64,000 bases of DNA from Ptychodera flava (Eukaryota), in NCBI RefSeq assembly GCF_041260155.1, contig NC_091937.1, positions 6,640,626 through 6,704,625 on the forward strand, read 5' to 3'. This document shows positions 5,376 to 64,000 of the stretch, piece after piece. A program made the position numbers and the translations under genes. Position 1 is the stretch's first letter, and every line of letters starts with the position of its first letter. The notes under the pieces were generated by a model. The model saw nothing but the letters and a program-made list of their open reading frames with translations. It ran no database searches and was not told where the DNA came from.

Positions 5376-5685
5376 TTAAGGTAGAATGTGCCTTGGCGAC
5401 ATAGTTGACTCAAATTTCTGCAATACTATTCTGATCTTCCACTGTAAGGGCTCATTCTGAAGCTGTTTGTGAAAGAAAAACTTTTACTTTCTTAGTTTTT
5501 TGAAAATCCAACATTTAATGTTTCCCTCACAGAGTTAACACAGGAATGACGGCCATTTTGAATTTCAAATAATGCAAAAATGTTGGGTAATTTGTTTCGC
5601 CAGTTCCAAACTTTGCATGGTGACCCTGATTTTTCGACGTGCATACTACCTGAAGCTCATTTGCATATGAAAAATGACAGAAAAT
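5376..5685 (-). mobile_element. SINE-like ~340-bp interspersed repeat, minus-orientation copy
   Basis: Contains the reverse complement of the family core gaaattcaaaatggctgccatccctgtgttaactctatgg and of the tail ...cacattctaccttaa. Confidence 0.7.
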
Positions 5686-7133: not shown

Positions 7134-8376
7134 TTAGCTCCGCTGTCAGCGACGCGGAGCTTATCAAATAGGTTGATTATCCGTCGTCGTCCGTCGTCCG
7201 TCGTCCGTCGTCCGTCGTCGTCCGTCGTCCGTCGTCGTCCGTCAACAATTGCCTTCTCCTCTGAAACCACAAGTCGAATTGCTTTGAAATTTTATATGCA
7301 GTTCACTTGGGGTGACCTCACTTCAGTTTGTTCAAATCATGGTGAAATTTGCATATTTGTATTTTTGGGGCATTTTTTGGTGTTTTTGGTAAAAAAATCT
7401 TCTTCTCTGAAACCGCTCGTCTGATTGCTTTGAAATTTGATATGCAGTTTGCTTAGGGTGACTTAAACCAGATTTGTTAAAATGGTGGTGAAATTTGCAT
7501 ATTTGTATTTTTAAGGCAATTTTGTCATTTTTGGTAAAAAAATCTTTAAAATCTTCTTCTTCAAAACTACAAGTCAGATAGCTTTTATATTTGGTACATA
7601 TGTCCCTAGGGATGATCTATTTCAGATTTGTTCAAATTGTGCAGAAATATGCAAATTTGCATTTTTAAGGCAATTTTTGCCATTTTTGGTCAAAAAATGT
7701 ATTTCTCAAAAAGTACTGGTCTGACAGTTTTGAAATTTGGTATACAGGTTTCTATAGATGAACTAAGTAATATATATTGAATTTCTGATGAAATCTGTAA
7801 TTTTGTATTTTTTGAGCAATTTTTGCCATTTTTGGTCAAAAATGTGTATTTCCAAAACTACTTATCTGATAGCTTTGAAATTTGGTATACAGGTTTCCAT
7901 AGATGAACTAAATGATATTTATTGAAATAATGATGACATCTGCAATTTTGAATTTTAGGGCAATTTTTCTCATTTTTGGTCAAAAAATGCGTTTCTCGAA
8001 AAGTACTGGTCTAACAGCTTTGAAATTTGGTATACAGGTTTCTATATATGAACTAAGTGTGATATTTTGAAATTATGATGAAATCTGCAATTTTTATTTT
8101 TGGGGGCAATTGTTGCCATTTTTGGTCAGAATATTTTATTCTCAAAAACTACTCATCAGATAGCTTTGGTTGACATGTTCTTAGGGATGATCGAATGTGA
8201 TATATTCAAAGTATGATGAAATCTTCAATTTTGTATTTTTGCAGCTTATTTTAGCCACTTTTTTCTGGCCACTGCATTGAGTTATCAAAGATTTCCACCT
8301 TCTTCATCAACATGTGTCAAAAATAGTTATTCTGTACATAAACACAGCGGAGCTATATCGGCCGCTAGGTCGCTTG
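7134..8376. mobile_element. non-autonomous element, family A: hairpin-forming termini, a (CCGTCGT)n microsatellite at 7181-7243, an internal ~150-bp tandem array (7 units, 7240-8270) and a conserved 3' tail
   Basis: Left terminus tAGCTCCGCTGTcagcgacGCGGAGCT and right terminus ACAGCGGAGCT are inverted. The tail ...ccaccttcttcatcaacatgtgtcaaaaatagttattctgtacataaacacagcggagctatatcggccgctaggtcgcttg recurs at 17020-17115 and 39050-39140. Confidence 0.6.
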
Positions 8377-11364: not shown

Positions 11365-11510
11365 TGCCACAGGTGTCTGGAGTTGCCAGTGTAGATAGCC
11401 CTGCGCACATGTCTGTTCCTGGCGTTATACGGCCGTATAACGCCGGGAACACACAGACCTGTACGCAGGGCTACATGTACACTGGCAAATTCAGGCACCT
11501 GTGGTGCAAT
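11365..11510. repeat. ~145-bp imperfect palindrome centred on the perfect palindrome cgttatacggccgtataacg
   Basis: cacaggtgtctggagttgccagtgtagatagccctgcgcacatgtctgttcctggcgttatacgg | ccgtataacgccgggaacacacagacctgtacgcagggctacatgtacactggcaaattcaggcacctgtgg. Confidence 0.75.
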
Positions 11511-14452: not shown

Positions 14453-14814
14453 GTGAGTGGTAACACGTAGGACTTTTTTCAATTACTCGCATGAAAAGTT
14501 TATAAAATATTGCACTGCTGATAACTTTCAATAAATTTCACTCCCAGAGCGCACAAATTTGCATATGAAATGTATGGTGTAGGTGTGCAAATTTGTGACG
14601 AGACTGAAAGCAGAAGAAAATGTTTACATAGCAGGAAAAGATCAAACATTTGGTATTAATTTTTTGCATGTAATTTGTAGGATATTTCACGCAAGTGATA
14701 TGGTACCAACTATTTTTAGAAAATTCAGTATTGCCCACAACCACTTCATGAAAAATATTCACACTAAATGTACACTTCTAATTCAAATTGAGGAAATAGT
14801 CATTTATCAAGGTT

Positions 14815-15500
14815 TTTAGCTCATATTTGGTTTTATATATAAATACCAAAAAGAGCTTATATGATGAGTCTAAATGTCTGTATATTTGTGGGTATGTGCG
14901 GATGTATGTCCGTCACACACAAAGGCTCCCATACCGCCAAAGCTACCGTCTCAGTATTTGGTGTACAGGTAGATGTAGGGGTTGAGATGTGAATTTGTTC
15001 AAATGAACACATCAGTGTCAAAAATGTGCAAATGAGGTAAGAAAAAGCGAAATTCTGAAACAGGCTTGAAACAGGCTTACTCCACTGACTTGAGTCATTT
15101 CCTGTTATTGTCATTGAACTGTTACATATTAACAGACCTGCTCAAACCATAGACAGTAGAGGGGAGGAAGACCGTCAGTAGAGGGGAGGAAGACCGTCTA
15201 TGGTCAAACTGAGGCAGTAAGGGGGCTAGCTGCCTTTCTGCTATGCATGTTGCTAAAGTTGACCTCCAGTACCTAAAGTTTCAGACCTTAATTACTTTTG
15301 TCATTCTTGTTTTTCTGGTTTAAATATTTCTTGTTGTTTTTCTGGTTGTACTGTGCAGAAATCATTGTCATAACATCAACGTAGAATTTTCCTGCACTGA
15401 ACAGATAGAAACAACATTTATTGTTGATCTTTGGTACCCATACTGGTATGTACCAATTCTGATCAAATTTGAGCGACACCGTATAATTGCGGTATTTTTC
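14815..15500. mobile_element. family B non-autonomous element (~690 bp) in PARP4 intron 2
   Basis: Starts ttTAGCTCATATTTGGTTTTAtatataaataccaaaaagagcttatatgatgagtc. It is about 90% identical over its length to 26373-27061. Confidence 0.7.
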
Positions 15501-16639: not shown

Positions 16640-17115
16640 TCTATATTATGAATTCATGAATTATGCATATTTGTATTTTGAAGCTGCAATTTTTGTCATT
16701 TTTGGTAAAAAAATCTTTAAAAATCTTCTTCAACAGTGATAGTTTTGATATTTGGTATACAGGTTTATGAGGATGATCAAAAAGTGATATATTGAAATTA
16801 TATTGAAATCTGCAATTTTGTAGTTTTGGGGCAATTTTTGCCATTTTTGGTCAAAAAATTTGTTTTCTTTAAAACTACATGTCTGATAGCTTTGATATTT
16901 GGTAGACATATTCTTAGTGGTGATCTTAATGTGACATGCTCAAATTATGACGAAATGTTCAATTGTGTATTTTTGCAGCTATTTTTGCCATTTTTGGTCA
17001 GGCCACTCTGAAGTGAGCTGTCAAAGATTTCCACCTTCTTCATCAACACATGTCACAAATAGTTATTATCTACATAACACAGCAACGCTATATTGGCCAC
17101 CAGGCTGCTTGTCAA
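16640..17115. mobile_element. family A copy (2.5 tandem units plus conserved 3' tail) in PARP4 intron 3
   Basis: Units gcaatttttgccatttttggtcaaaaaat...ctgatagctttgatatttggta. Tail atttccaccttcttcatcaacacatgtcacaaatagttattatctacataacacagcaacgctatattggccaccaggctgcttg. Confidence 0.6.
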
Positions 17116-17524: not shown

Positions 17525-17880
17525 TAAGTTAGAACGTGCCTCAGTGACAGATATTTAGATTCTCAAATTTCTATAATTCTTTTCTGATCTACTTCTTGTG
17601 GGGGCTCATTTTAAAGGTTTTGGAAAAAGTAAAAATTTCACTGTCTTAGTTTTTCGAAAATCCAAAATTTCATTTTTCCCCATAGAGATAACACAGTGAT
17701 GGCAGCCATTTTGAATTCAGATATCGCAAAATGTTGGGTAATTTGTTTCGTTAGTTCCAAACTTTGCATGTTACCCCCAATTTTTATTGTTGATCTGGTA
17801 AGAGAATGGTTGAAAGTTTCATTTAGGAAATTTGAACAAAAGTATAAGTCTCTGTCTTTTGAGGCGCATGAGTCAAAATT
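17525..17880 (-). mobile_element. SINE-like family copy (minus), about 200 bp downstream of the PARP4 exon 4 donor
   Basis: Same core (gatggcagccattttgaattc) and tail (gtaagttagaacgtgcctc) in reverse complement. Confidence 0.7.
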
Positions 17881-18419: not shown

Positions 18420-18531
<112 letters not shown>

Positions 18532-23579: not shown

Positions 23580-24182
23580 GTTTGTTCATCTCAATCCCAT
23601 AATTTTGTGTCACAAAGGTGTTTGCTTTTTATTGAAAAAAGTGTATTTCTGTAAATAGATGGCTTTCAGATTCTATGCATACAAGCAAGACACTGCCTTT
23701 ATAAATAATTACACCACACTGTACCAGTAACTTATCACTAACTTTGAGTTTTAGTTTTTTCACTGCAAACGTGCACTGCCAATACAATAGTCAAAGTACC
23801 CGATAGGTTTGTCACTCATTGCAGATATACAGAACCATTTACTTGGTCATGTATTGCCCAACACCCCTAGCAGTTGCGCCACTCCATCAAGTCATCAAAA
23901 TGTAGTGATTTATCTTATTATTGTAAAATAAAGGGATGTACTTAACTGTTTATTCAGTTTCATGAGGTAAAAATGGCTGGGATGGCAAATGTCTCTCACA
24001 AAAGTTTACTTTTTAGTTTGCTCATGTCTGGCCAAATAGAGTCTGGGTAATAAGAAAATATGACTGATACCATTGGACAAACTGCGTTAATGTAGGTAAA
24101 TGTTGGATCAAAGTTTGTATGCCGTATATTCTTACTAAGCCGTGTTGGTCTACTCTGCCTTGCTCAGTGCGCCACCTGTTAA

Positions 24183-24538
24183 GGTAGTTTGAGCCTCGAA
24201 AATGAAATACTTAAAGTTTTGCTCAAACTTTCCTCAAACAAACTTTTAACCATTCTCTTTCAAAATCTAGAAAAAAATCGGGAGTCACTGTGCAAATTTT
24301 GTTACTAGAGAAACAAATTACTCAATATTTTCTGATATTTAAAATTCAAATTGATGGCCAACCCTGTGTTATCTCTATGGGAAAAGTAAAATCCCAATTT
24401 TCACAAAACTAAGCCGGTGAAATGTTTATTTACTCCATAAGCTCCAAAATTAGCCCCCGCAAGTGGTAGGCGAGAAGAATATTGTAAAAGTTTGAGAGTC
24501 GGAATATTTGTCTCCTCGGCCCGGCATGTTCTACCTTT
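24183..24538 (+). mobile_element. SINE-like family copy (plus)
   Basis: Head gcctcgaaaatgaaatacttaaagttttgctcaaactttcctcaa, core gatggccaaccctgtgtta, tail ggcatgttctaccttta. Confidence 0.7.
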
Positions 24539-25285: not shown

Positions 25286-26166
25286 GTACAAAAATATCGG
25301 ATGAAAAAAGAGAAGGCTTTTTTGATGAAGTATATCAGCAATAAACCGCACCCAGTGATGGTATACAATGTGATTTTGACCAGTTCATGACATAGCAAGT
25401 GCATACATGGTATGTCATGAAATGGTCAAAACCAAGTGCTATACTGTCGCTGAGTGTGGTTTATTGCTATTATATCATAACAGTACTATATTGAAATTCT
25501 GGCATGGAACATCAAAGAAGGATTTTGCTCTTGCTGAGAACTCACATGTGCCAACCATGCTTTATCGGGAACATAGCGTGGTTATTTTCACATCTCGACC
25601 ATACAGGTTGCTGTGTTTGTGCCATCAATATATTGATATGATATAATTGATGATATAGGTTTAAATTTAAATTTACGTTTTACATCTGAACAAAACTGTT
25701 AGAGAGATCACATTTTCCATCAATAGTTAAAAATCTAAGATGTAAACTTACAGTAGGATTACAATATGATTTGACGGGACACCAGGCAATCCTACAACCC
25801 TATTGAAGGAATGTGGATAGGGAAATTTTAAAGTTATAAATATCTGTGTTGATGTTCAACATCTTACGATAACTGCTACCTATTATGTACTTACTGACCA
25901 GGGCTTCATTTTCTTGTTGCTCCTGTGCAACTCATACAAAATAATGCAACAAAAATAGATAATATAGATACAATAAGCAATATGATGCCACTACAGGGAT
26001 CTATTGCTTAATTGCCACTCACACCCTTTTTAATTTTCTCTGCAAAGGCTAAAATTATAACTCATAAACTTGAATGGTAAACAGTCAAGTTCATTGCAGA
26101 CCAGTACCTTGGACTATTTTTGAATTATTATGATTTTAATCTCATCAAGAAGTCTCTGCATTTCAG

Positions 26167-26350
26167 TACAAGTGCTAAGTACAGTTTTGTCAGTGAGGTC
26201 AGGGGAACCCGCTTTATGCTGGTCAGTAGAGTTGAACTGGGGCAATGTAAAGATCTGTACAAATCCGATGCAGACATGATAGCTCCTCCCAATGGATACA
26301 ACAGTGTGCACGGCGTCAAGGGAACAGACCAACAACCATCAGATTTCAAG
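26167..26350 (+). CDS. PARP4: PARP4-like exon 10 (catalytic): STSAKYSFVSEVRGTRFMLVSRVELGQCKDLYKSDADMIAPPNGYNSVHGVKGTDQQPSDFK
   Basis: Acceptor tctctgcatttcAG and donor AAG|GTAAGA. Human: LSTSIKYSHPGETDGTRLLLICDVALGKCMDLHEKDFSLTEAPPGYDSVHGVSQTASVTTDFE. Confidence 0.9.
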
Positions 26351-26372
26351 GTAAGAGTGGAAATATCCATTT

Positions 26373-27061
26373 TTAGCTCATATTTGGTTTTGTATATAAA
26401 TACCAAAAAGAGCTTATATGATGAGTCGGTGGCGTCTGTATGTCTGTATATTTGTCGGTATGTATATACGGATGTATGTCCGTCACACACAAAGGCTCCC
26501 ATACCGCCAAAGCTACCATCTCAGTATTTGGTGTAGAGGTAGATGCAGGGGTTGAGATGTGAATTTGTTCAAATGAACACATCAGTGTCAAAAATGTGCA
26601 AATGAGGTAAGAAAAAGTGAAATCCTGCAAATGTGCAGGAGTGATGGCATGCCAGTAAGAAACAGGCCAACTCCACTGATCTTGAGTCATTTCCTGTCAT
26701 TGTTTATGAACTGTTACATATTAACAGACCTGCTGAAACCATAGACAGTAGAGGGGGGGGGGAAGACCGTCTATACTCAAACTAAGAGGGGCTTGTTTCT
26801 GCTATGCATGTTGCTAAAGTTGACCTCCAGTACCTAAAGTTTCAGACCTTAATTACTTTTGTCATTCTTGTTTTTCTGGTTTAAATATTTCTTGTTGTTT
26901 TTCTGGTTGTACTGTGCAGAAATCATTGTCATAACATCAACGTAGAATTTTCCTCCACTGAACATATAGAAACAACATTTATTGTTGATCTTTGGTACCC
27001 ACACTGGTATGTACCAATTCTGATCAAATTTGAGCAACACCATATAATTGCGGTATTTTTA
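26373..27061. mobile_element. family B copy, beginning 23 bp downstream of the PARP4 exon 10 donor
   Basis: Near-identical to 14815-15500, including ...cctccagtacctaaagtttcagaccttaattacttttgtcattcttgtttttctggtttaaatatttcttg.... Confidence 0.7.
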
Positions 27062-28982: not shown

Positions 28983-29345
28983 TAAGTTAGAACATACCTT
29001 GGGGACAAATAGTCAGACTTTCAAATTCTTTCAAATTTCTACAATTTTTTTTCTGATCTACCACTTATAGGGGCTAATTTTAAAGCTCTTGGAGAAAGGA
29101 AAACTGTCATCGTGTTAGCTTTTCGAAAAATTCAAAATTTAATTTTTCTCCCTAGAGCTAACACAGGGATGGCAGCCATTTTGAATTTCAAATATCACAA
29201 AATGTTTTGTAATTTGTTTCGCTGGTTAAAAACTTTGTACGGTGACCCCCACTTTTTATTGTTGATTTGGTATGAGAATTGTTGAAAGTGTCATTAACGA
29301 AAGTTTGAGAAAAATTTTGAAATCTTTCATTTTTAAGCGCAATAT
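28983..29345 (-). mobile_element. SINE-like family copy (minus), 32 bp downstream of the PARP4 exon 11 donor
   Basis: Reverse-complement tail ttagaacataccttggggacaaatag and core agagctaacacagggatggcagccattttgaatttc. Confidence 0.7.
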
Positions 29346-30332
29346 ACTACCTTAATGGTTGAACATGCCTTGACACATTAAGTGTTTTCCACAGCTTGGA
29401 AAACAGGGGGGGGGGCAACCATTTTACATAACAATGCATAATTTGCATATTCTTTTGTTGTGTAAATAGTATTTTTCTATACAGTCATTAACATATGAAA
29501 ACATTGCTCCAAAACAGTAGGGTAGCCCACCCCTTAAAATACCCTTTTGGAGACCCCTGCACATAGTTTAAACTTTTGCAGTTACTTTAGTCCGGGAAAC
29601 TTTAACTCAGTTTCTTTCATATGACATTTATAAGATCAGCTATAAACTTAGTTGTAATGGGAAAACTAAATTTTTTGTTTTCTCAGAAAATGAGACAATA
29701 CCAACATTATTTACTCCAGTGGCTTAAAAATTAACTGACAAAGGCGACACATCAAAAAAGTATAGCAGTGATTTGAAAGTCTGAAAAGTGCTGTGTGGGT
29801 CCATGTTACCTTGGGGTAGAACATGCATCTCACCAAATCAAGAACATAAATCAGGGGTCGCCATGCAATGTTTGGAACTAGAGAAACAAATTACTACCTG
29901 TATGGATATAGAACTTCAAATTTGCTGCCATGCCCTGTGTTAATTTTATGGGAAAATACAACATTTTTCGATATTTTAAAGGAGACAGTGAAAGTGTTTT
30001 AGCTTCAAGAGCTTTAAAATGAAAGAATGGTAGACTAGAAAAAGTATTAAAACAATTTGAGAGTCCACATATCTTTCTCTGAGCCACATTCTATCTTAAT
30101 GCTGGACTTTCTCACAGCCCCTGGTTTGCTACACAATATGTAGTTACTGTATCATATATTCATACTGTGATATGTCCTCAATGGTCTTCGCAGGCCAGCT
30201 CTATGCCAACTGTGTAGCAACACTACCCCAGCTTGTTGAGAGCCTGGCTATGGTGAGCTCAAAATCAGGGCAGGAAAAGACCACGCTGTGTACAGCCAAT
30301 GTGGGACTTTAGAGAAACTGCTTTAATTTAGT

Positions 30333-30880
30333 TAGTGCCTCAAAATTGAAATACTTCAACCTTTGCCCAAACTTTCCAATAAGGAAATTTTAAATCCCTC
30401 CATTTTGAAATCAAGAATAAAAATCATGGGTAACCATGCAAATTGTGGTAATAGAGAAACAAATTACCCAATATTTATGAAATTCAAAATGGCTGCTAAC
30501 CCTGTGTTAACTCTATGGGCAAAAGTGAAGTCACCTTGCTGAAAGCTTTATTTACTCTGTTAGCTTTGACCCTTTGAGCGCCAAAGTCAATTTCTATCGC
30601 CTTTATAAAATGTACCCAAGTCCAATTTTTTCAAATTTTTGCCAAAATTTTAATGAAAAACTGTAGTCCATGAAATGTGATGTCCGTTTGGACCAAAATT
30701 ATCAAAAAAATTACAGAAAAATTCATAAAAATTGTTAAAATGTTGCACTAAAATTCTGATGTGAAAAATTACAGCACTTAAAAGGTTAAAATGAGCCCCC
30801 ACATATGGTATACCAAAACAGAATACTTAAGTTCCAGAGTCAGAATATCTCGTCCCAGGGCACATTCTGCCTTGATACAT
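30333..30880 (+). mobile_element. SINE-like family copy (plus) split by a nested piggyBac-like MITE at 30566-30789
   Basis: SINE head and core run 30333-30565. The SINE tail aatgagcccccacatatggtataccaaaacagaa...cacattctgcctt resumes at 30790. Confidence 0.65.
30566..30789. mobile_element. second, more diverged copy of the piggyBac-like MITE, inserted at a TTAA inside a SINE copy
   Basis: gctTTGA|CCCTTTGAGCGCC ... GCACTTAAAAGG|TTAAaatga. The interrupted SINE sequence gcttTAAaatga is continuous once the element is removed. Confidence 0.6.
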
Positions 30881-32388: not shown

Positions 32389-32807
32389 GTAAGTTAGGGC
32401 GTCTGAATACTCTGCTTGTCTTTAATAGGGTGTCTGAAACTCTGCTTGCCTTTACTCTTGACAGATAGCTTGTATCTTCATTTATGCTACGTTAAAATGT
32501 AGCTGTGTGTCTCATAGTTTATGTGTCAGTGTGCCTGTCTGTCAGCATTAACACTTTCTAGCGCTTTGTACAAAATCTGTATATCTTTCATTCGCTCTCT
32601 CTTTCCTCTTCAGTCTCTCTGTCTCTGTGCTTTTCTCTTTGTGAAAAGTCATCCATTGTAAGTCTTTCTTCCTTTACCAAGTGGGCAGAACCACAAGAAA
32701 AATATTATTACATGATTGAGTTGATGTCCAATGGATAGACATTTAAGAAATTACATAATATGACCTATCAGAGTATGTAATGTAATATTATATGTATCAT
32801 TAAGGTA

Positions 32808-33155
32808 GTATTACCTCAAAAGTGAAAGACTTAAACTTTTGCCCAAACTTTACTCAAGAAACTTTCAACCATTCTCTTAAGCAATCAAGAACAAAAATAA
32901 CGAGTCCCTCTGCAAAGTTTGGAACTAGGAAACAAATTATCCAACAATTAGTAATACCGGTATCTGCAACTCAAAATGGCTGCCATCCCTGCATAAACTC
33001 TATGGGGCATGAACATTTTTGATTTCAAGAAAATTATGACAGTGAAAATTTTCTTACAGCTTTAAAGTGAACCACCACAAGTGATAGATTAGAATAGGAT
33101 TGAAAAACCTTCAGACTCTCAATCTGTCCCAGACGCATGCATTCAACCTTAATTA
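32808..33155 (+). mobile_element. SINE-like family copy (plus), ending about 45 bp upstream of the exon 14 acceptor
   Basis: Head agtgaaagacttaaacttttgcccaaactttactcaa, core caaaatggctgccatccctgcataaactctatggg. Confidence 0.7.
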
Positions 33156-33199
33156 TTCGGCTGACTACAATTTTGTTCATTTTCATCCTCTGCAACTAG

Positions 33200-35077: not shown

Positions 35078-35170
35078 GTATTTGATTTATATGCCATTTT
35101 CTTGTGTTTTTCAATAGATTTTGAAGCAAATTTAATAGCTACATGAGAAAGTTTTCTACAAAGTTACGGT

Positions 35171-35501
35171 AGTTTGTGCCTCAAAATGAAGACTTAAGCT
35201 TTTGTCAGGCTCTCCTCAAGCAAACTGTCAACCATTCTCTTTCAAAATCAAGAATAGAAATTGGGTGTCACCATGCAAAGTTTGGTATTAGAGAAACAAG
35301 TTATCTTCCATCAAATTGGCTGCCATCCCCGTATTTACTCTATGGGGAAAACAAAATTTCTGATTTTCACAAAACTAAGCTGGTGAAAACTTTATTTAAT
35401 CCATAAGTTTCCACATGAGCCTCCTCGAGTGGCAGGCCAAAAGAATTATTTTGAAATTTTTAGAGTCTGAATATCTTTCCCAGAGGCACATTCTACCTTA
35501 A
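35171..35501 (+). mobile_element. SINE-like family copy (plus)
   Basis: gtgcctcaaaatgaagacttaagcttttg ... ggctgccatccccgtatttactctatgggg ... cacattctaccttaa. Confidence 0.75.
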
Positions 35502-37048: not shown

Positions 37049-37390
37049 GTAAGTTGTTGCAGCTTGGCTTATAAACTTTTCTGCTCTCAACAAAGCAGGT
37101 TTTATCAAAAAAAGTTACTCTCTGCTGCTGTTACGGTCTTTAGTCTTTAAATTTCTCTCCACAATACATTTCATAATATGAGATGCCAGTGGTGAGACAG
37201 TACAAGCTTGCCTTACTGAGGATATTTGCATGAAGGCATGCTGTGTATTCTGTGGTGTGTTGGCACCTGGAGTGATCACGAAGAAACGAAATACAGGAGT
37301 AAAGCTTTCAGAAATGTGATATTTTGTATTATTAAAAAGTACATTAAGCGTTGAAATCTTCCCGGCCGAAAGATGTTTCTTTTTTTAAGG

Positions 37391-37741
37391 TGTATGCACC
37401 TCGAAAGTGAAAGACTTAAACTTTTGCTCTAACTTTCCTCAAGGAATCTTTTAATCATTCTCTTTCAAAATCAAGAATAAAAATAGGGGGTCACCGTGCA
37501 AATTTTGGTACTAGAGAAACAAATAACCCAAGATTTACCGATATTAGAAATTCAAAATGGCCACCATCCCTGTGTTAACTCTATGGAGAAAAATAAAATT
37601 TTCGAATTTCGAAAAAGTAAGCCGGTGAAAAGTTTTCTTTCACCAAGAGCTTTAAAATGAACCCCATATGTGGTATATCAGAAGAGCATTGTAAAAGTTT
37701 GAGAGTCCGAACGTCTGTCCCCGAGGTGCGTTCTACCTTAA
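37391..37741 (+). mobile_element. SINE-like family copy (plus)
   Basis: Full-length copy: cacctcgaaagtgaaagacttaaac ... gccaccatccctgtgttaactctatgg ... gtgcgttctacctta. Confidence 0.75.
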
Positions 37742-38000
37742 GTATAATAATAATAGCTTGCATACCGTCATTTTCGTTTTGCTTATAAGATACTTGTTGT
37801 TTACAAACAAAAGTAGTTTGGGGCACAAGAGCTCATTAACATAAGATTATTGTATAATGTTTTCTGTATTGCACTGCAGTGCAAATACCAATTGTACGTG
37901 CACTATTAAAAAGTACAGTGAGCGTTGAAATCTTGCAGACCGAAAGATGTCTCTTTCTTTAAGTAGTATAATAATAGCTTGCATACCGTCATTTTTGTTA

Positions 38001-39290
38001 GCTACTATAGACTATAGTCTATAGAAGCTATGGGATGGGTACCGTCCGGCGTCCGTCGTCAGTCTGTATGTATGTATGTATGTATGTATGTATGTATGTA
38101 TGTCCGTTTGTGAGGCGTCCGTCCACTCAAATATCTTGAGAACCGCAGTACTTACTGATTTGATATTTGTTGTGTAGATGAAAAATACGATTTTGAAACT
38201 ATTTTTTTTAACTTTTTGATATTGTTGAAAATAGGCAAATTAATGCCAAAAAAGGTGTTTTTGGTAAAAAATCTTCTTCTTCATAACCGCTGGTCAGACA
38301 GCTTTGTTATTGGTATACAGGTCCCTAGGGGTAACCCAACTTAGACTTGTTCAAATTGTGATGAAATATGCAAATCTGTATTTTTAAGGAATTTTTTGTC
38401 ATTTTTGGTCAAAATTTGACTTACATTGTATGTAATTCTTGTACTGTATAAACCCTATCAATTCACCCAGAAAAAAATAATTAATATGATTTTAAATAAT
38501 TGAATTAATTAGGAAATCATCAAAGGCAAAATAATTTTAGTGTAGAATTATCAGAAAGTTCAACTTTTTGACGTTTGACAGTTCATAGTGAAATGCTTAC
38601 CATCTTAGAGGATTAAAACATGTAAAGGCAACTTTCCTGAATCCCAACTTTGACATATTCTGAACCGTCATTTATTGTGCCCTGTATGTTATCTCAAAGA
38701 AATTGCTCAAAATAGTCAATAGAGATAGAGATAGAGAAAGTTCTAATTTCCATTTATGGTTGACTTGGTAAGGATAAAATAAAATTACTTTTTGAGGAAA
38801 AAAATAGAGTGGTCAATTAAAAGAGTGGTCAAAGTGATAGGGTTTTTATGGTAAAGCTGGGCTGTACAAAGATTCCTCATGTGCTATTTATAGCAATTAT
38901 GCAATCTGTGTAAACAGTGCAATGAAAGTGTAACATGATTCCTTATAATGCTTTTGATGACCTTGAACTTCTTAAGTTTCAAACCTTTGTCTCTTCAGTG
39001 TGCTTTCTCTGAGTATGTACAGTCTCAACTTATTAAACAGAACTTACAATGTTAATCAAAGATATCCACCTTCTTCATCAATACATGTGTCACAAAAGGT
39101 TATTCTCTACATAACTCAACAGAGCTCTGTCAACTGTTGAGTTGCTTGTTCTTTCAAAACCGCTGGTCAGACAGCTTTAATATTTATTTACTTGTCCGTA
39201 GGATGACCTTAGTGAGATAATTTCATACAGTAAGGAAATACTTAATTTTGTATCCATGTCTATAGTAGCTTCAGGGACTTTGGCCCTATT
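38001..39290. mobile_element. family A copy in PARP4 intron 17: head, (TGTA)n at 38065-38101, tandem units, about 650 bp of unrelated internal sequence, then the conserved tail at 39050-39140
   Basis: ccgtccggcgtccgtcgtcagtc(tgta)n ... ggtaaaaaatcttcttcttcataaccgctggtcagacagctttgttattggtatacagg ... tail aaagatatccaccttcttcatcaatacatgtgtcacaaaaggttattctctacataactcaacagagctc. Confidence 0.55.
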
Positions 39291-40744: not shown

Positions 40745-41073
40745 GTAAAATGTAAAAATTTGCTCTAATTTCCCTAAATGAAACTTTCAACCATATTCTT
40801 ACCAATCAAGAATAAAATCAGGAGTCACTATGTAAAGTTTGGTAGTAGAGGGTGAACCAACAACCTGACATTTACCAATATTTGAAATTCAAAATGGCTG
40901 CCATTCCTAGCTGTGTTAACCTTATGAGGAAAAATAAAATCTTTGATTTAAAAAAAAACTGCAATAGCGAAATTTTTCTTACTGTAAGAGCTTTAAAAGA
41001 AACACCCACAAGAGGTAGATCACAAAATTGTAAAAATTTGAGTCTGATATCTGTCCCCAAGGCTCGTTGAAAG
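40745..41073 (+). mobile_element. SINE-like family copy (plus)
   Basis: aaaatggctgccattcctagctgtgttaaccttatgagg ... ctgtccccaaggctcgtt. Confidence 0.7.
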
Positions 41074-46718: not shown

Positions 46719-46868
46719 TTGAGTGGTGAAGAACTACTCAAGGACTTACTGGAGAAAGCAGAAACAAACCAACGTCTGTCCATCATTCTGCAAGCAGAGA
46801 GAGGCTATCAAGAAGCATATGATGTGGCTGTGAAAGACTTGCCGACAACTCATCCACTCAGACTCAAA
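46719..46868 (+). CDS. exon with a 14-3-3-like segment, in phase (0) with exon 23: LSGEELLKDLLEKAETNQRLSIILQAERGYQEAYDVAVKDLPTTHPLRLK
   Basis: Acceptor ttctttctctgtttgaatgtgaatAG, with an in-frame stop immediately upstream in the intron. Donor AAA|GTAAGC. AYDVAVKDLPTTHPLRL matches the 14-3-3 helix AY(K/Q)(A/E)A..I...(L/M)(P/Q)PTHPIRLG. Confidence 0.5.
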
Positions 46869-47303
46869 GTAAGCATTCTGTTCCCATCTTTCTGCTGTGT
46901 TTCCTCAGATCCAGTATTGTCTATTGCATTTCTTTTGAGACTGGTCCATTTCATTTCTGAATGGGGTAGAACCGACCTTCGTAAGGCTGCAGCACTGGTA
47001 TCAAAGACTTGCCATCCAAATGTAAGAGACACAAAATATGCCAGTAACAGTGTACATGGGGTATTTTGGTGGAGATCAGATTTACTTTACGTTTCATTTG
47101 GTGTACTTGACTCATAAATAAGAATGGAAAGTTATTCTATATCATTTTACAATCAAATAAGCACAACTCATATAATGTCACTAATATTTTTGTCAAAAAT
47201 GATGCTCAAGTTATCTCCTCTACGATCTTATTAGCTCCATGATTTTCTACTTTCCTTCATCAAGTTTTGTTACTGTTTTTGATATCCATCCTTTTACTTT
47301 CAG

Positions 47304-48989: not shown

Positions 48990-49890
48990 TTGCACTAAAC
49001 TTAATAAAACTTTGAGCTCTAAAAGCACACAATGAGGCATGTCAGTATTGCATCAATTAATTGCTAATTTGCACATTTGATGAACTTTTGTAATGAGGGT
49101 GACATGTCCAAAATACTACAGCAAATTTGATGAAACTTGGTAAAGATCTTTAACACACAGTCTCATAATAGTGTACAAAGACATGTAGCAGTGACATGCT
49201 AATTTGCATGTTTGACGAACTTTCCTAATTTGTAAGCTATGTCCAGAAACATTGCATCAAATTTGATGATACTTGGTACAGATGTTGATCTTTCAGTACT
49301 GTAATACTATGTAAAGACATTAAGCAGTATCATGCTAAATGATTGCTAATTTGCATTTTTGGTGAACTTTTATAATTAGTGTGATTTGTATAGAAATGCT
49401 GCATCAAATTTGATGAAAAGTGCTACAGATGTTGATCTCCAGGAGTGTTATGGCATGTAAAGATATGCAGTAGTATCATGTCAATTAATTGCTGATTTGC
49501 ATGTTTAATGAATTTTCGTAATTAGGCTCATATGTCAAGAAATGGTTCATCAAATTTTATGAAACTTGATACAGATGTTAAGCTCACATTGCTTTAACAG
49601 TGAATAAAGACATTCAGCAGTGTCATGTTGATTAATTTGTAATTTTCATATTAGATGAACTTTCCTAATTAGAGTGATATGTCCAGAAATACTGAATCAA
49701 ATTTGATGAACTTGGTACAGATGTTGATCTCAGTACTGTAATACCATTCATTGACACTTAGCGGTATCGTTTATAAAATGTGGTACAGGTGATAATCTTT
49801 CAGTGTTATAGTAGAATGCAAAAATGTTTGGCAACATGCTGTCGATTAATTATTGACTTATTTAATGACCTTTCGTAATTAAGTTGGCAG
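48990..49890. repeat. ~145-bp tandem repeat (about 6 units) in the intron between the 48053 and 50601 exons
   Basis: Recurring ...catcaaatttgatgaaacttggtacagatgttgatct...gcagt.tcatg.t.attaattgctaatttgcat.tttgatgaactttcctaatt.... Confidence 0.7.
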
Positions 49891-53104: not shown

Positions 53105-53600
53105 TTTCTGGTAGACTTAACTCAAAGACTGGCAGCCATAATTTCTGTGTGAACACAATGGGGAAAATTTGAATTACTAATTTGTGTTCAACAATTAGAA
53201 GACACTGAAACTTCACTTACTTCAAGAGCTTCAAAATGAGGCCACACAAGTGGTAGATCAGAAAAGTATTATAAAATTTTGTGAGTCCAAATATCTGTCA
53301 CCAAAATGCATTCTACCATTAGCTCTTTGTGAGTCCAAATATCTCTCACCAAAGTGCATTCTACCATTAGCTCTTTGTGAGTCCAAATATCTCTCACCAA
53401 AGTGCATTCTACCATTAGCTCTTTGTGAGTCCAAATATCTCTCACCAAAGTGCATTCTACCATTAGCTCTTTGTGAGTCCAAATATCTCTCACCAAAATG
53501 CATTCTACCATTAGCTCTTTGTGAGTCCAAATATCTCTCACCAAAATGCATTCTACCATTAGCTCGTTTTGTAAGACCTTTGAATGATGCTGTATCACAA
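53105..53600 (+). mobile_element. SINE-like family copy (plus) whose 3' tail has been tandemly amplified (see repeat 53281-53568)
   Basis: Core gactggcagccataatttctgtgtgaacacaatgggg, then six copies of the tail motif. Confidence 0.7.
53281..53568. repeat. 48-bp minisatellite, 6 copies (gtgagtccaaatatctctcaccaaagtgcattctaccattagctcttt)
   Basis: Exact period of 48 seen in the sequence. It explains track ORFs 53250-53635 on three frames with 16-aa peptide repeats. Confidence 0.9.
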
Positions 53601-57009: not shown

Positions 57010-58990
57010 TAGCTCACATTTGGTTTTACCAATGTGAGTTTATCGTATAGGCTGAAGTCGATGGCGTCTGTATGTATGTGTGTATGTATGTATGTATGTA
57101 TGTATGTACAGTATGTCCGTCAACATCAAAAACACGCAAACCGCTGCACGTTTCAGCTTGGTATTTGTTGTGTGGATGCATCCTGGGCTATAGATGGGAT
57201 TTTGTTCAAATGAAGTCTGCATTGCCAAAATTATGCAAATGAGCTTACAAAATGTGAAAATGGTCAAGAATTAATAACTCAAGAACTGCTTTTTTGATTG
57301 CTTTGAAAATTTGTGTGCAAGTACCTTAGGTTAACCTTATACAGTTTTATGAATATTGTGAAGATATCCTTAATTTTGTATTTTTGCTGAATTTTTTGGT
57401 GATTTTTCTCATTTTCAGTAAAAATTCTTCTTCTCTGAAACCGCCGGCCCAATCGCTCTCAAATTTGGGTTGTCTCTTTGCGAGGGTGTTACTCTTCTAA
57501 TTTGTTGAAATTATGACAAAATTGGGAAAATTACTATTTTTGTGCAATTTTGTCATTTTTGGTCAAAAAATCTTAGACAGTGTTTCCTTTTTAAAACCCC
57601 TGGACAGACAGCTTTCATATTTCGTACACAGACGTACAGAGATGACAATAGTTAGATATGTGGAAATTGTCCTGAAATATAAAAAATTGTATTTTTAAGA
57701 CAATATTGTCATTTTTGGTCAAGAAAACTTTATCTCAACATTACTTGTTTGATAGCTTTGTAATTTGGTATAAAGTCCCGAAAGATGTTATTAGATAAAT
57801 TTTCTGCTCAAAGTGTTGGGAAACCCCAAAATTTGTATATTTTAGGTACTATTCTCAGTTTGTGACCTTAAATGACCTATACTAACCCAAGATATGTTGT
57901 GAGACAATTTTGAAGGCTGTGAACATAATTTTGTCATATTTGATACCAATTTGTAGGAAAATTTGATCCAGAAAACAAAGCTGAGGTGATTTTTTTCATT
58001 TTGGACCAATTTTTGCAACTTTTCTATGTAAGACATACAAAAACTGATGAGAAATTTGGATCCAGGATAATTCAAGATGTTGTAATCACCACCCACAGTG
58101 GAAGGCATTTCACTATCTGTAACTAACTTAAGTGGCTGTTTACATAAGAATGATAACACTCATGGCATTAATTAAAAATCTCCAAGGTTGTAAATGTACT
58201 TCCTGTCATTTGGTCTTATGTAATACCAAGGGGTGGAACATTTGATATGCAGGAGGGGTAGGGTTTAGAAGATCAATGATGTAGCATTACTTTTTTACCA
58301 GATCCCTTGTGCATTTTTTGCCCACTCCCACCTTTTCTTTTTATCAAGCCTTCTCTGTTTTTTGTTGTTGACATTTGCTTATGTATTTAGGATCTGCTTC
58401 TCCCATTGCTATAGAAGTTGATATGCTTGTTCCTCAGGATGACCTCCAGTACCTAAGTTGGAGACCTTCCTGGTTTAAATATTTCTCGAATGGACCAATT
58501 CAAACCGAATGTGAGCACATAGTGTCCTTGACGGTATTTTCACTTTAATGCACTGAAATTTCCCAATAACGATTGCTTTGGTGTTCGATGCAATTGTTTT
58601 TACGGATGCCCTGTTTCATATTTGTTAAACCTATTTATTTTCTGATGGCGTTTGTCCATTCATTTCAAATTTGGTTTCTTTCTTTGCTCTTGGGAATTAT
58701 GGGGCCATGCAGATATGTCAAAATGGTGATGAAATTTGCAAACTAACATGTAAAATTTTTGAGCCAATTTTCTCGTTGTCCATCATAACATTTCCCACCA
58801 CATAGCCATGTACCTGACTGCTTTCAAGTTTGGCTTGTAGGTTCCTTGTTACATATACTACTGTATCCAGATTTGTTCAAATGATGATGAAAATGTGTGT
58901 AACAAACTTCTTGTGTCTCATTGTTTATCTTACTGGAAACAACATCTCAAAAACCACTCAAACGAAAGCTTTTAATCATTCTTCATCTTT
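57010..58990. mobile_element. composite of family A (head tAGCTCAcatttggtttta, (GTAT)n at 57068-57108, tandem units) with a family B tail fragment at 58440-58520
   Basis: Same head, microsatellite and unit architecture as 7134-8376 and 38001-39290. It has the unit motifs attgctttgaaaatttg and atttttggtcaaaaaatctt. Confidence 0.5.
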
Positions 58991-59165
58991 TTTGTAGAAA
59001 AACACTTCATATTTGTCAAAAATAACAACATTTTGGGAGTATGAATCGCTTGATAGCATGTTTAGTATTGAGGTTCCTATGGATGAGCTCATCAAGTTAA
59101 CTTATACGTTGAATTAAATTAAGTCTTTTGGGCTGGTTTTCTAAAACATCAGATACTTCATTTAT

Positions 59166-59328
59166 TAGCTCATATTTGGTTTTATATATAAATACCAAAA
59201 AGAGCTTATATGATGAGTCTGAGTGGCATCTGTGTCTGTATATTTGTGGGTATGTGCGGATGTTTGTCCATCACACACAAAGGCTCCCATACCGCCAAAG
59301 CTACCGTCTCAGTATTTTTTAAACCCCC
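59166..59328. mobile_element. family B truncated copy (5' 160 bp only)
   Basis: tAGCTCATATTTGGTTTTAtatataaataccaaaaagagcttatatgatgagtc...gctaccgtctcagtattt. Confidence 0.6.
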
Positions 59329-59671: not shown

Positions 59672-59822
59672 TAATTAGAGGTTATTACCCAATATTGCCT
59701 GTTCCTGTGTTGTATCAGCATGAGTGTCATTTGTGCTGCGTCAGACACGAGACGAAGTCGAGTGTCTGAGGCAGCATAAATGACATGAATGCTGATACGA
59801 CGCAAGGAACACGTGATATTGG
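59672..59822. repeat. ~70-bp-arm imperfect inverted repeat (arms about 85% matched) centred near 59748
   Basis: ggttattacccaatattgcctgttcctgtgttgtatcagcatgagtgtcatttgtgctgcgtcagacacgag ... ctgaggcagcataaatgacatgaatgctgatacgacgcaaggaacacgtgatattgggtaataac. Confidence 0.7.
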
Positions 59823-60289
59823 GTAATAACTAATTTATCATATACTCATGCCCAGAAATTTACTAATAATACTTATAACGCCTTGCGCATAAATATCTAA
59901 ATATTTGTGTGAAAAGGCTTCATTCATAAACTATACAAAAAAGTCAACATCAAGCGCGACATCACTGCAAATCCTCCATATGTCAATGAACCGCAAGAAG
60001 AAAGACACCGGGATTCAAAAATGTCATACAGGAGAAACCTTTTAAGGTGCAATATACTATTACAATTGTAACAGATCAAAAACTGTCCTCAGCTTTAAAT
60101 TTGTCCTGTCTTCGATCGCACTCTTTTGTCGTATGGAACGGAGTGGGGTTGCAATTTTGATTGTTAACACTGAAAGTTGCCATGTCAACAGGCGTCGCGT
60201 GCGCGACACTTCGCTGTCATGCCACGTGCTCGCTACCTGTAGACCATGCCATGGCCAGAAGTCGGGATTTTTTCATTTTAGACATTTTA

Positions 60290-62400
60290 CATTTTAGTAG
60301 TGCATGTTTGACATGTTAGGTCGGAACTAACGTGACCAAAAAAGCCAAACTTGCAAAGCTATCGTGTATCGTGCAGACCCAACATATCCGCACCTATCGT
60401 TTCTAAAATGTCTAACGTGTATGTCAGGTCGGAACTAACGTGCCTAAAATGCCAAACGTGCAAACCTATCGTGTATCGTGCAGACCTAACGTTAATAACC
60501 TATGTCTAACATGTATAGCATTTTAGGGCGTACAAATTAATAAGTCCTATTCTATCATGCCAATCGTGCAAACCTATCGTGTATTGTGCACACCCAACAT
60601 GTATCCTATCGTGTATCGTGCAGACCTAACGTGTACGGACCTAAAGTGTCTAAAATGTCAAACGTGCATGTCATTTTAGGTTCTCAACATGGGTCAAGTC
60701 TATCATGCCAATCGTGCAAACCTATCGTGTAACGTGCCGACCTAACGTGTACGGAACTAACGTGTCTAAAATGTCTAACGTGTATATCATGACTGTACCA
60801 TTCAACTTATCTGGAGACCCTAAAATGACATACACTTTAGACATTTTAGACACGATAGGTTTGCATGATTGCCATGATAGCTCTTGACTCAATTAGAGAC
60901 CCTCATTGACATACACGTTTGACATTTTAGACACGTTAGCTCTGTCAACGTTAGGTCGGCACGTTATACGATATGTCTTATGATTGCCATGATACAATTC
61001 TACTTATCTTGAACCCTAAAATGACATACACTTTTGACGTCTATAGACACAATGTCTAACGTGTATGTCGTTTTAGGTTGTCAACATGAGTCAAAATCTA
61101 ACATGCCAATCGTGCAAACCTATCATGTATCGTGTAAACCTAACGTGTACGGACCTAACGTGTCGAAAATGTCTAACGTGTATGTCATTTTAGGTTCACA
61201 ACATGGGTCAAAATCTATCATGCCAATCGTGCAAACCTATCGTGTATCGTGCAAACCTAACATGGTCAGCACGTTACACGATAAGTTTGCACGATTAGTA
61301 TGATAGATTTTGTCTCAATTACATCCTAAAATGACATACACGTTAGACATTTTAGACACTTTAGCTCCATAAATCTTAGGTCAGCACCTTATACGATATG
61401 ACTCAAGATTCACGTGATGGCCTACAAACACGGTAGGAGACTAACTCTATCACGCCAATCGTGCAAACCTATCTTGTATCGTGCAAACCTAACGTGTACG
61501 GACCTAACGTGTCTAAAATGTCTAACGTGTATGTCATTTTAGGTTCTCCACATGGGTCAAAATCTAACATGCCAATCGTGCAAACCTATGGTGTATCGTG
61601 CACACCTAACGTGTACGGACCTAACGTGTCTAAAATGTCTAACGTGTATGTCATTTTAGGTTCTCAACATGAGTCAAAATCTATCATGCCAATCGTGCAA
61701 ACCTATCGTGTATCGTGCAAACCTAACGTGTACGGACCTAACGTGTCTAAAATGTCTAACGTGTATGTCATTTTAGGTTCTCCACATGAGTCAAAATCTA
61801 TTATGCCAATCATGCAAACCTATCGTGTATCGTGCACACCTAACGTGTATGGACCTAACGTGTCTAAAATGTCTAACGTGTATGTCATTTTAGGTTTTCA
61901 ACAGGACTCCAATTTCTATCATGCCAATCATGCAAACCTATCGTGTATCGTGCAAACCTAACGTGTACGGACCTAACGTGTCTAAAATGTCTAACGTGTA
62001 TGTCATTTTAGGTTCTCCACATGGGTCAAAATCTATCATGCCAATCGTGCAAACCTATCGTGTAACGTGCAGACCTAACGTGTACGGACCTAACGTGTCT
62101 AAAATGTCTAACATGTATGTCATTTTAGGTTTTCAACATCGGTCAAAATCTACCATGCCAATCGTGCAAACCTATCGTGTATCGTGCAAACCTAACGTGT
62201 ACGGACCTAACGTGTCTAAAATGTCTAACGTGTATGTCATTTTAGGTTCTCCACATGACTCCAATTTCTATCATGCCAATCATGCTAACCTATCGTGTAT
62301 CGTGCAAACCTAACGTGTACGGACCTAACGTGTCTAAAATGTCTAACGTGCAGACTTTTACAGTGTTTAGTCATGCACGTTTGTCCTACACGTTTGGGTT
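60290..62400. repeat. ~117-bp satellite array, about 17 units, with orientation-switched segments at 60800-61050 and 61290-61400
   Basis: Unit gtctaaaatgtctaacgtgtatgtcattttaggttctcaacatgggtcaaaatctatcatgccaatcgtgcaaacctatcgtgtatcgtgcaaacctaacgtgtacggacctaacgt. Regular period 61500-62340. Flanked by direct repeats gctcgctacctgtagaccatgcc at 60229 and 62487. Confidence 0.85.
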
Positions 62401-63332
62401 CTATAATGTACAATGGCATACAATTGCCCATAGCACGATAGCTTCAACAATGTGAAACGTGCATTTTTACCAACTACTGGCCATAGCTCGCTACCTGTAG
62501 ACCATGCCGTGTGAACAGGAAGAATGTTTGCTAGATTGTTTAAAAAAATACAAGAACTTTAACAGAAAAACCATGGGGAAGCATTACAAGACTCAATATC
62601 TTATTTCCATATTTAGCAACACAATATATTCATGTTCCTCAAAGCCCTTCAAATTTTTACATCGGCAGCATCACTTCGCAGGCGGAGAGCTGCAGCCATT
62701 TTTTGTTTACATTGTTTACCATCAAAATGCAAATATAGTTCGGGAATACTCCAAACCGATGACGTTTATAGTGCATATCTCGACATTTACTGTGAAATAT
62801 CACAGCTGATATTTTACGGTAAATGTCACTATCGTGAAGTGATATGGGCATGGGTATATGATAATATGACCTTGAATGACGAAATAAGAAAGCGTTTGTG
62901 TATAGCTGTTGAAAGCACCAGGAGTATAATTATTATAACACGCCACACACAAATTTTTTGCCAAGTTCATAAGAACAAGATCCATGATGAGAAAATGGAT
63001 AAAGCTAGCTACACTCTAGCTCAAAATATCAACTCAAGCTGGATTAAATATTTTCCTTTTTGCATTCTATTAGCATATCAATTAGAAAATATAAGTTCAA
63101 GCAGGGATGTTAATTTGTGTGCCAAGAATATTTTCAATGTCTCACCACAAAGAAATTATTACATCAACAACTGCTGTGGAGACCATTTACAATTCTTGTA
63201 CAGTGTGTGCATTTAAGGTAGTATGTGCCGCAAAAGTAAGACTCAAACCTTCCTCGAAGTATACATATGTCCTTGTGGGAAATTACAGTGCTCGATGCTA
63301 AAGCAGAGTGTTATGAATAATAATACAAAAAT

Positions 63333-63456
63333 ACTTCAAGTACAAAGTAATGATATCTGTTACTTAAGTTTCATGCATCCTGCATCCTTCTTCTGTCTGA
63401 TGATAGCAGGATGCATGAAACTTAAGTAACAGATATCATTACTTTGTACCTGAAGT
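63333..63456. repeat. near-perfect inverted repeat: 51-bp arms with one mismatch and a 22-nt loop
   Basis: Left arm acttcaagtacaaagtaatgatatctgttacttaagtttcatgcatcctgc. The right arm is its reverse complement, with cagg in place of caag. Loop atccttcttctgtctgatgata. Confidence 0.85.
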
Positions 63457-63466
63457 AATTTTGTGT

Positions 63467-63582
<116 letters not shown>

Positions 63583-64000
63583 CACATGAACTCGCCCGTA
63601 TCTCCACCTGTGTGACGTACACCAGCACAGATAAGAAATCCATATTACCGCTGTTGTACGTCATCAACCGGAACTTTTTTCCTGCAATGGTACCGTTCGT
63701 ACGTGCACATCGCGACACAGACCGATTTGTCGTGATCGATACCGTGCTCTCATGGCATTTTGACAAAAAGGTGACCCGATAAATCCAGATACGGAAACAG
63801 AGAAGGCATGCCCAACGAAATTTCGAGTCGCTAAAGCTTTACTATTCCCAAGAATCGAATGAGGATACCGTCGATCGTTTGACTCAGTAACGTCACGGCT
63901 CCAGTCGCAAGGCTCAATGTGGATATCGTAGTACCTGGCGATCGCCAAGCGACGTTGTACCTGGCGATCCCGGTTGGCGATAAACCCGAAAGATACACCT

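Follow-up and report, generated by a model that had tools for sequence, protein, structure and literature searches.

Among the described systems to which a long genomic hairpin can be compared are the Drosophila FB elements, whose inverted termini run from hundreds of base pairs to kilobases and are made of short tandem subrepeats, and the known hpRNAs, whose arms of hundreds of base pairs derive from their target genes. MITEs, small non-autonomous DNA transposons, can be far more compact. Made1, a human MITE derived from Hsmar1 and the source of mir-548, measures just 80 bp and consists of two 37-bp terminal inverted repeats (TIRs) and 6 bp of other sequence (PMC1784062). Microsatellite-targeting MITEs that prefer (TA)n have been documented as well, and these are flanked by the tract on both sides (PMC8449440). 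The AT-specific ATons of Aedes have TIRs of 15-17 bp and a conserved ATAGGCC end (PMC3422177). Another set of studies concerns template switching, which creates perfect hairpins in one event and has left more than 6,000 of them, with stems of 30-55 nt, in primates (PMC10710096); according to a further study, it can also homogenise and expand the arms of inverted repeats (PMC13100816). Finally, the human palindromes PATRR11, PATRR17 (~190 bp) and PATRR22 are AT-rich and near-perfect. A 9-bp central spacer already abolishes both cruciform extrusion and instability of PATRR22, and in (AT)n no kinetic barrier stands in the way of cruciform extrusion (PMC1851657).

Here, we describe a palindrome that lies close to the right end of a 64-kb window, by which we mean the whole stretch of DNA (64,000 bp) that was analysed. 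Like Made1, it is short, non-coding, TA-compatible and nearly all inverted repeat, with arms of 64-67 bp in place of 37 bp and a spacer of 22 bp in place of 6 bp. Rice Micron and pineapple Ac-mMITE resemble it in being small inverted-repeat elements that touch (TA)n; the tract lies on both sides there and on the right only here, and assignment to the Micron/Ac-mMITE type of microsatellite-targeting MITE was rejected on that ground. The ATAGGCC end of the ATons is absent. Template-switch mutations are likewise near-perfect inverted copies with a short spacer and no target-site duplication (TSD), although the arm is longer here. The palindrome shares its AT-richness and near-perfection with the PATRRs, but these are symmetric at the centre whereas its own 22-nt centre is asymmetric, and a cruciform palindrome of the PATRR type was rejected for want of that symmetry. 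As at the Drosophila-type hpRNA and endo-siRNA loci, a long near-perfect RNA hairpin could form, with arms that are far shorter. A Helitron or Helentron 3' hairpin was also considered and rejected, on the 67-bp size of the arms.

Two origins, insertion of a MITE and a template-switch error, come out nearly tied, and we place the MITE slightly ahead. Neither would surprise a specialist, and the locus is likely to be prone to replication slippage, deletion and assembly trouble.

Extent and geometry of the palindrome

A pair-by-pair complement check finds 43 perfect pairs, between 63341-63383 and 63406-63448. Beyond this core there is a single mismatch (A 63340/C 63449) and then seven further pairs, giving 51-bp arms (63333-63383 and 63406-63456) that differ by one mismatch and enclose a 22-nt loop (63384-63405), 124 bp overall. 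The initial annotation had reported just this 124-bp hairpin, and its description is exact by pairwise reading; the true extent, however, is longer. Both the pairwise check and an antidiagonal scan carry the arms outward to 67 bp (63317-63383 and 63406-63472, with no strand assigned to either), so that the full palindrome occupies 156 bp and has three mismatches, with 64 of the 67 arm positions complementary (95.5%). In addition to the mismatch already given, these are T 63324/G 63465 and A 63331/A 63458. All three lie within the outer 27 bp of the arms, an outer-end bias that is not significant (P ~0.07). A repeat finder extends the arms still further, to 72 nt at 93% identity. Over its 156 bp the palindrome has 29.5% GC (~70% AT).

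The left arm (63317-63383) is perfectly paired in its inner part, 63341-63383, and a 37-mer taken from it occurs only there and, inverted, at 63406-63442. The spacer (63384-63405, no strand) reads ATCCTTCTTCTGTCTGATGATA, is asymmetric over its 22 nt and stays mostly unpaired in the MFE fold; the 20 bp around it include GCATCCTGC. A direct duplication, GCATCCT GCATCCT, spans the border between arm and loop, the first bases of the loop continuing it. At its outer end, GTGTTATTAT, the right arm (63406-63472) grades into a TA tract. The left flank of the palindrome reads ...GCAGAGTGTTATGA and is not (TA)n, and the flanking DNA is ordinary and unique on either side.

No subrepeats inside the arms were reported by TRF or by the repeat finder. 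The three short palindromes nested in the arm (GATATC, CTTAAG and ATGCAT) compare with an expectation of 1.3, which is not a significant excess. Free of internal subrepeats, the arms are unique sequence over their 67 bp, which speaks against the suggestion, made from a first reading of the region, that the hairpin might be a foldback element in the strict sense. The same reading had taken the low divergence of the arms as a sign of recent origin, gene conversion or selection for the fold. Recent origin is sufficient to account for three differences in 67 bp, and neither gene conversion nor selection is needed.

The adjoining TA tract

TRF places a (TA)56.5 microsatellite at 63470-63582 (98%, no strand), which is itself a perfect former of hairpins and cruciforms, and a pattern match finds 54.5 uninterrupted copies at 63470-63578. 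An adjacent (AT)55 tract had been noted before, correctly, and the contact is in fact closer than adjacency: palindrome and tract touch, with the right arm overlapping the tract by 3 bp. The 13 bp that seem to separate the 124-bp hairpin from the tract are the outer portion of the right arm. Since the 64-kb window contains two long (TA)n tracts, the adjacency can be set against a chance expectation of ~3e-4; it is non-random under the MITE model and the template-switch model alike. On its far side the tract is followed by a CpG-rich block (63583-64000, no strand; CpG o/e 1.44, GC 0.49), which continues past the window end and is an unmethylated island or, alternatively, a young insert.

The question of a target site is closely bound up with this contact. 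A candidate TA duplication can be drawn at 63318-63319 with its partner at 63470-63471 (no strand), in which case the element proper would be 63320-63469; the palindrome extends one base past this TA/TA pair. The candidate is weak and uninformative because TA is trivially available in an AT-rich, (TA)n context. A check of the palindrome boundaries revealed no in-register direct repeat of at least 4 bp, and no target-site duplication longer than TA or TAT is present there, though the copy is young enough to keep one. The absence of a longer duplication rules out families of the hAT, Mutator, PIF, piggyBac and P types.

Folding of the palindrome and its neighbour

Folded as RNA, the segment 63300-63490 reaches -102.7 kcal/mol, as against -31.9 +/- 3.5 kcal/mol for 200 dinucleotide shuffles, none of which is as good (0/200; z = -20). 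Folded as DNA and including the TA tract, 63300-63600 reaches -101 kcal/mol (z = -25) in the form of two adjacent hairpins. An antidiagonal scan of the whole window gives the palindrome a score of 58; the runner-up, inside a satellite, scores 34, and the maxima in ten Markov-1 simulated windows are 10-13. The inverted repeat is real, very stable and far beyond chance.

How would such a structure behave in the cell? Its 22-nt asymmetric centre implies that the unique-sequence palindrome should not extrude a cruciform and should need to be single-stranded in order to fold. By analogy with PATRR22, folding should therefore be confined to the replication fork, on the lagging-strand template, or to a read-through transcript. 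The neighbouring (TA)55 tract can extrude freely, and it alone has a PATRR-like extrusion potential. Hairpin and tract together amount to ~270 bp of structure-prone DNA beside the CpG-rich block, and would plausibly be a hotspot for slippage, deletion and sequencing trouble. Nothing indicates a function, and the present effect of the hairpin is structural only.

Other copies and other palindromes

Searches of the 64-kb window with an arm 37-mer, 20-mer and 18-mer, allowing up to three mismatches, recover just the two arms. When the segment 62350-64000 is compared with the window by sensitive blastn, no further copy turns up, the only extra match being the other TA tract. One exact arm 20-mer each was scanned against metagenome and viral contigs, collections that are without the source species, and had no match. 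A second 20-mer with eight metagenome loci, and another with one prokaryote locus, were set aside as chance, for these are bare 20-22-nt matches in bacterial genes that do not extend. Also set aside were five matches of a 68-aa ORF running across the hairpin, obtained among 1.84 billion representative proteins; they are tandem-repeat proteins in which a weak match of 11-33 aa is multiplied. The failure to find copies is weak evidence because the collections searched do not contain the source species.

The window does hold other palindromes. One, at 25337-25468, has 64-bp arms that are ~80% complementary and a 4-nt loop, in an architecture like that of 63317-63472; a direct repeat of 8-9 bp, AGTATATC(A)/ATTATATC(A), stands at its two ends precisely in register. 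With its TSD, this palindrome means that the genome demonstrably carries TIR-only palindromic MITEs. Two more, at 11367-11504 and 59712-59798, are unique within the window and lack a TSD. Kinship of the hairpin with these three palindromes was considered and discarded, as the local alignment scores fall under the random background.

A possible palindromic MITE

Our first choice of origin, which we hold tentatively, is that the hairpin is one copy of a TIR-only palindromic MITE. The element would consist of two TIRs of ~64-67 bp and a 22-bp spacer, ~150-156 bp with no coding capacity, and would have integrated at a TA dinucleotide bordering AT-rich or (TA)n sequence on its left, the kind of TA target that TA-duplicating transposases of the Tc1/mariner type would favour. 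Alternatively, the TA tract may have grown later, out of the TA-rich end of the element. With arms 95.5% complementary, the copy would be young. The structure of the palindrome, its significance, its lack of coding potential and a further palindromic MITE in the window are observed; that it moved, that it used TA as target and how old it is we infer.

Some of the features expected of a MITE are present: the inverted repeats reach the ends of the unit, which is small, AT-rich and without coding capacity. Several observations speak for the MITE origin. The palindrome runs over the whole length of a unit that has the size and composition of a MITE, with no ORF homologue or Pfam match; the TA/TA pair at its ends fits a TA target-site duplication; it is in contact with a TA microsatellite, where chance would give ~3e-4; and, as the strongest local argument, it shares its window with the TSD-bearing palindrome 25337-25468, in a genome dense in short interspersed repeats. 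Against these must be set the finding of no second copy in the 64 kb or in the other collections, the lack of any duplication beyond TA in a young copy, and the presence of the tract on one side only. The position of the arm mismatches, all of them outermost, also argues against a MITE, since TIR ends are usually the best-preserved part of such elements, though the bias is not significant. The termini of the palindrome are not known to fit any superfamily motif, and its sequence resembles none of the known elements with which it could be compared.

The initial annotation had spoken of a foldback or MITE remnant. The MITE holds its place as one of the two best explanations, on account of size, AT content, palindromy, TA and the palindrome at 25337-25468; "remnant" does not, given the intact, young appearance of the element. 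Should this be a MITE copy, it would mark a TA-targeting family that is young and might still be active, which would help in annotating repeats and provide a marker of insertion polymorphism. An allele empty of the transposon would then read ...GTGTTATGAA-TA-TATATA..., with ~150 bp absent.

A possible template switch at the microsatellite boundary

A single template-switch error at the (TA)n boundary, absent from the earlier reading of the region, is an equally good origin for the palindrome, and we rank it second as a serious possibility. It supposes an ancestor with the order arm-loop-(TA)n and a one-step inverted duplication by fold-back synthesis, the product being non-mobile and functionless. 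A polymerase travelling rightward would stall at the hairpin-forming TA tract; the nascent strand would then fold back and copy the preceding 67 bp, which would become the right arm; and synthesis would return to the template once the copy had come to ATAATAATA; the complement of that motif, TATTATTAT, is able to anneal again with (TA)n. Because cruciforms arise from (AT)n with no kinetic barrier to overcome (PMC1851657), the tract would be a plausible obstacle to replication.

Such an event predicts exactly the observed order of arm, loop, inverted arm and (TA)n. It would leave an inverted copy of the immediately adjacent sequence across a short spacer, which is what is found, with a spacer of 22 nt. 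The arm homology ends where AT-rich microhomology with the TA tract starts. The palindrome is single-copy wherever it was searched for and has no target-site duplication past TA, and the palindromes at 11367-11504 and 59712-59798, also unique within the window, are likewise without a TSD. On the other hand, the 67-bp arms exceed the 30-55-nt range of stems in the primate survey (PMC10710096), and the switch point on the loop side has no in-register microhomology, just ATC/GAT, and that with one base bulged out. The palindrome at 25337-25468 shows that similar palindromes in this very window can be true TSD-bearing MITEs. If a template switch is nonetheless responsible, the locus would be a clean and unusually long case of microsatellite-triggered inverted duplication, and raw material for new hairpin RNAs.

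Possible small RNAs from the hairpin

Could the palindrome, by whichever of the two origins, be transcribed and serve as a Dicer substrate? As a short hpRNA, endo-siRNA or proto-miRNA locus it would yield 21-23-nt RNAs from both arms, a reading compatible with either origin. We consider this unlikely. In its favour, the RNA hairpin is very stable (-102.7 kcal/mol, z = -20) and has an apical loop of more than 10 nt; palindromic MITEs (PMC1784062) and template-switch hairpins (PMC10710096) are both documented sources of new miRNAs; and the CpG-rich block, possibly promoter-like, lies ~110 bp away. Rfam, however, yields no family at gathering score in any part of the window. At a permissive threshold there are matches on both strands to eight miRNA families, unrelated to one another and of plant, mammalian and other origin, at one third to two thirds of their gathering scores, the top match being the plant family MIR841 with 63 bits against a gathering score of 200. 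Matches scattered in this way below threshold point to a generic perfect stem, recognised for its structure only, and not to membership in a family.

The geometry argues in the same direction. Pri-miRNAs prefer a stem of ~35 bp with mismatches, together with an apical loop of 10 nt or more (PMC10710096). The 22-nt loop would be acceptable for a pre-miRNA; the length of the stem and its pairing would not, at 51-67 bp with 43 bp perfect, about twice the pri-miRNA preference. The view first taken of the hairpin, that its arms are too long for a canonical pre-miRNA, is borne out by this comparison and by the lack of an Rfam match at gathering score. Moreover, no sequence complementary to the arms occurs elsewhere in the window as a possible target, and the two transition mismatches between them give one G-U wobble on each strand, with no strand-specific preservation of pairing. 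A bolder version has the hairpin as a newborn small-RNA gene, made in one step by a template switch or a MITE at (TA)n, upstream of a CpG-island promoter, and already transcribed and diced. This we find marginally less probable again; if true, it would offer a snapshot of the birth of a regulatory RNA de novo in a non-model invertebrate.

A possible composite element or artefact

The hairpin is situated in non-coding DNA, with ~1 kb of unique, CpG-poor sequence on the left and, beyond that, an array of a 117-bp satellite (~60.26-62.35 kb). A direct repeat of 23-26 bp encloses this array, with copies at 60228-60253 and 62486-62511. The hairpin might be one part of a larger Helentron- or HINE-like composite that takes in the satellite, the unique segment, the stem-loop and the microsatellite, a reading that we regard as very doubtful. 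The order array, unique segment, stem-loop and microsatellite does loosely resemble DINE-1/HINE, with their central repeats, microsatellite and 3' stem-loop, but the palindromes of Helitrons are 16-20 nt and those of HINE 5-10 bp, against 67-bp arms here (PMC4067079). The direct repeat that brackets the array, which might seem to favour a composite, is confined to the array and stops 800 bp short of the hairpin. Furthermore, no subterminal inverted repeats and no remnants of Rep or helicase were found (Pfam, six frames of 62350-64000).

Least probable of all is that sequencing or assembly created the palindrome, by way of a chimeric fold-back read, for example, or through misassembly at the TA tract. 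Long (TA)n tracts do cause difficulty in both steps and the hairpin is 530 bp from the window end, but fold-back artefacts are long, exact palindromes without a spacer, and the short arms with three to five differences, the asymmetric 22-nt spacer and the ordinary unique flanks are unlike them.

Genomic context and the 194-aa ORF

The region around 62.5-63.3 kb had been said to hold the longest non-repeat ORF, and the 194-aa ORF at 62632-63216 on the + strand (199 codons stop to stop) is indeed the longest in the window. It ends 100 bp upstream of the palindrome. Open frames of at least 200 codons are reached in 2 of 100 Markov-simulated windows. Pfam finds no domain in the 194-aa product, the assembly index contains no exact record of it, and 5.8 billion proteins include no homologue. 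The segment 62350-64000, which covers hairpin, ORF and CpG-rich block, is likewise without a Pfam match in all six frames. The ORF is probably a chance one and not a gene, with no bearing on the hairpin.

The window as a whole has 33-41% GC (~35%) and a median CpG o/e of 0.32, with a few CpG-rich islands. No tRNA-like sequence, as in a tRNA-derived SINE, was found in it. An akirin exon lies at 314-841; its best match, at 68% identity, is a Logan contig of run ERR4677227, and it is ~45% identical to fish and nemertean sequences. PARP4-like exons follow on the + strand, with Pfam matches to the PARP regulatory domain at 22.5 kb, the PARP catalytic domain at 26.1 kb and VWA at 40 kb; a search with the PARP exon gave a sole match, bacterial and at 54%. 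Akirin, the PARP4-like exons, the CpG depletion and the abundance of repeats together mark the window, as far as its content can be read, as nuclear DNA of an invertebrate animal. The repeats include an interspersed family of ~350 bp with at least 10 copies and several tandem arrays with units of 117-147 bp.

Other palindromes in the window

Three further palindromes lie in the window in addition to the hairpin at 63.3 kb (63317-63472). One of these, at 25337-25468 within an intron of the PARP4-like gene, is convincing as a palindromic MITE that carries a target-site duplication. The whole element is 132 bp long, with 64-bp arms that are about 80% complementary and a loop of 4 nt, and it is flanked on both sides, exactly in register, by a direct repeat of 8-9 bp (AGTATATC(A)/ATTATATC(A)), a duplication of hAT or Mutator length. 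Its sequence is not related to that of the 63.3-kb hairpin.

The second palindrome (11367-11504) consists of 138 bp without a spacer, is about 82% complementary with a 23-bp core at 11410-11455, and falls within a CpG-rich island (11.4-12.0 kb, 49% GC); no in-register target-site duplication was found at its boundaries. The third (59712-59798, 87 bp) has 37-bp arms that are about 86% complementary and a 13-nt loop, and lies immediately upstream of the satellite region described below. A target-site duplication was also sought for this palindrome, and none was found.

Satellite, tandem and simple repeats

The satellite array within 60228-62511 is built from at least about 11 units of 117 bp, with a higher-order period of 352 bp and several internal inversions that generate inverted repeats of 70-77 nt. 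The array is CpG-rich, with an observed/expected ratio of 1.2-1.4, in contrast to most of the window. Because it is bracketed by a direct repeat of 23-26 bp (GCTCGCTACCTGTAGACCATGCC, at 60228-60253 and 62486-62511), the arrangement suggests that the array lies inside, or has grown from, a discrete unit.

Tandem arrays are also present at 7253-8168 and 49062-49747, where the repeat periods are 136 and 145-147 bp. Partial copies of the array at 7.3-8.4 kb, 72-82% identical, are dispersed at 16.7, 38.3 and 57.3-57.8 kb (16656-17112, 38254-38414 and 57297-57772), and the array together with these copies shows the pattern of a mobile element that carries tandem repeats. The repeat at 53278-53565, with six copies of a 48-bp unit that are 98% identical, leaves reading frames open on each strand, with ORF lengths of 122 and 125 amino acids; it is a young minisatellite and not a gene.

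The second long TA tract of the window, at 18422-18528, is a (TA)54 microsatellite with one interruption and has no adjoining palindrome. Its right flank, which starts with TA followed by CAGTTACATG, resembles a Tc1-type terminus, for which no inverted partner was found within the 64-kb window.

Dispersed repeat families

At least 10 copies of a roughly 350-bp interspersed repeat occur in the window, on both strands and 72-84% identical (5376-5626, 17525-17869, 24178-24512, 29031-29333, 29835-30098, 30338-30529, 32800-33156, 35163-35500, 37385-37745 and 40759-41068), with most copies in introns of the PARP4-like gene. The copies probably belong to a family of SINEs or MITEs; no tRNA-like part was detected by ARAGORN. 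A second dispersed repeat occurs at 14813-15499, 26370-27060 and 59159-59317; it reaches a length of about 720 bp, and its copies are 87-92% identical. Its 26370-27060 copy starts immediately past the PARP catalytic exon (26.1-26.36 kb), which is why the ORF at 26120-26536 continues beyond that exon.

Other segments

The block at 63583-64000, truncated by the end of the window, is CpG-rich and contains several CRE-like motifs (TGACGT/ACGTCA) and a 17-bp direct repeat, CGT(A/T)GTACCTGGCGATC, at 63927-63943 and 63953-63969. The block could be a promoter, or else a young insert. A weak 14-3-3-like segment (46719-47114; Pfam E = 1e-4, under the gathering score), which lies on the plus strand downstream from the PARP4-like gene, may represent an exon or a pseudogene fragment.
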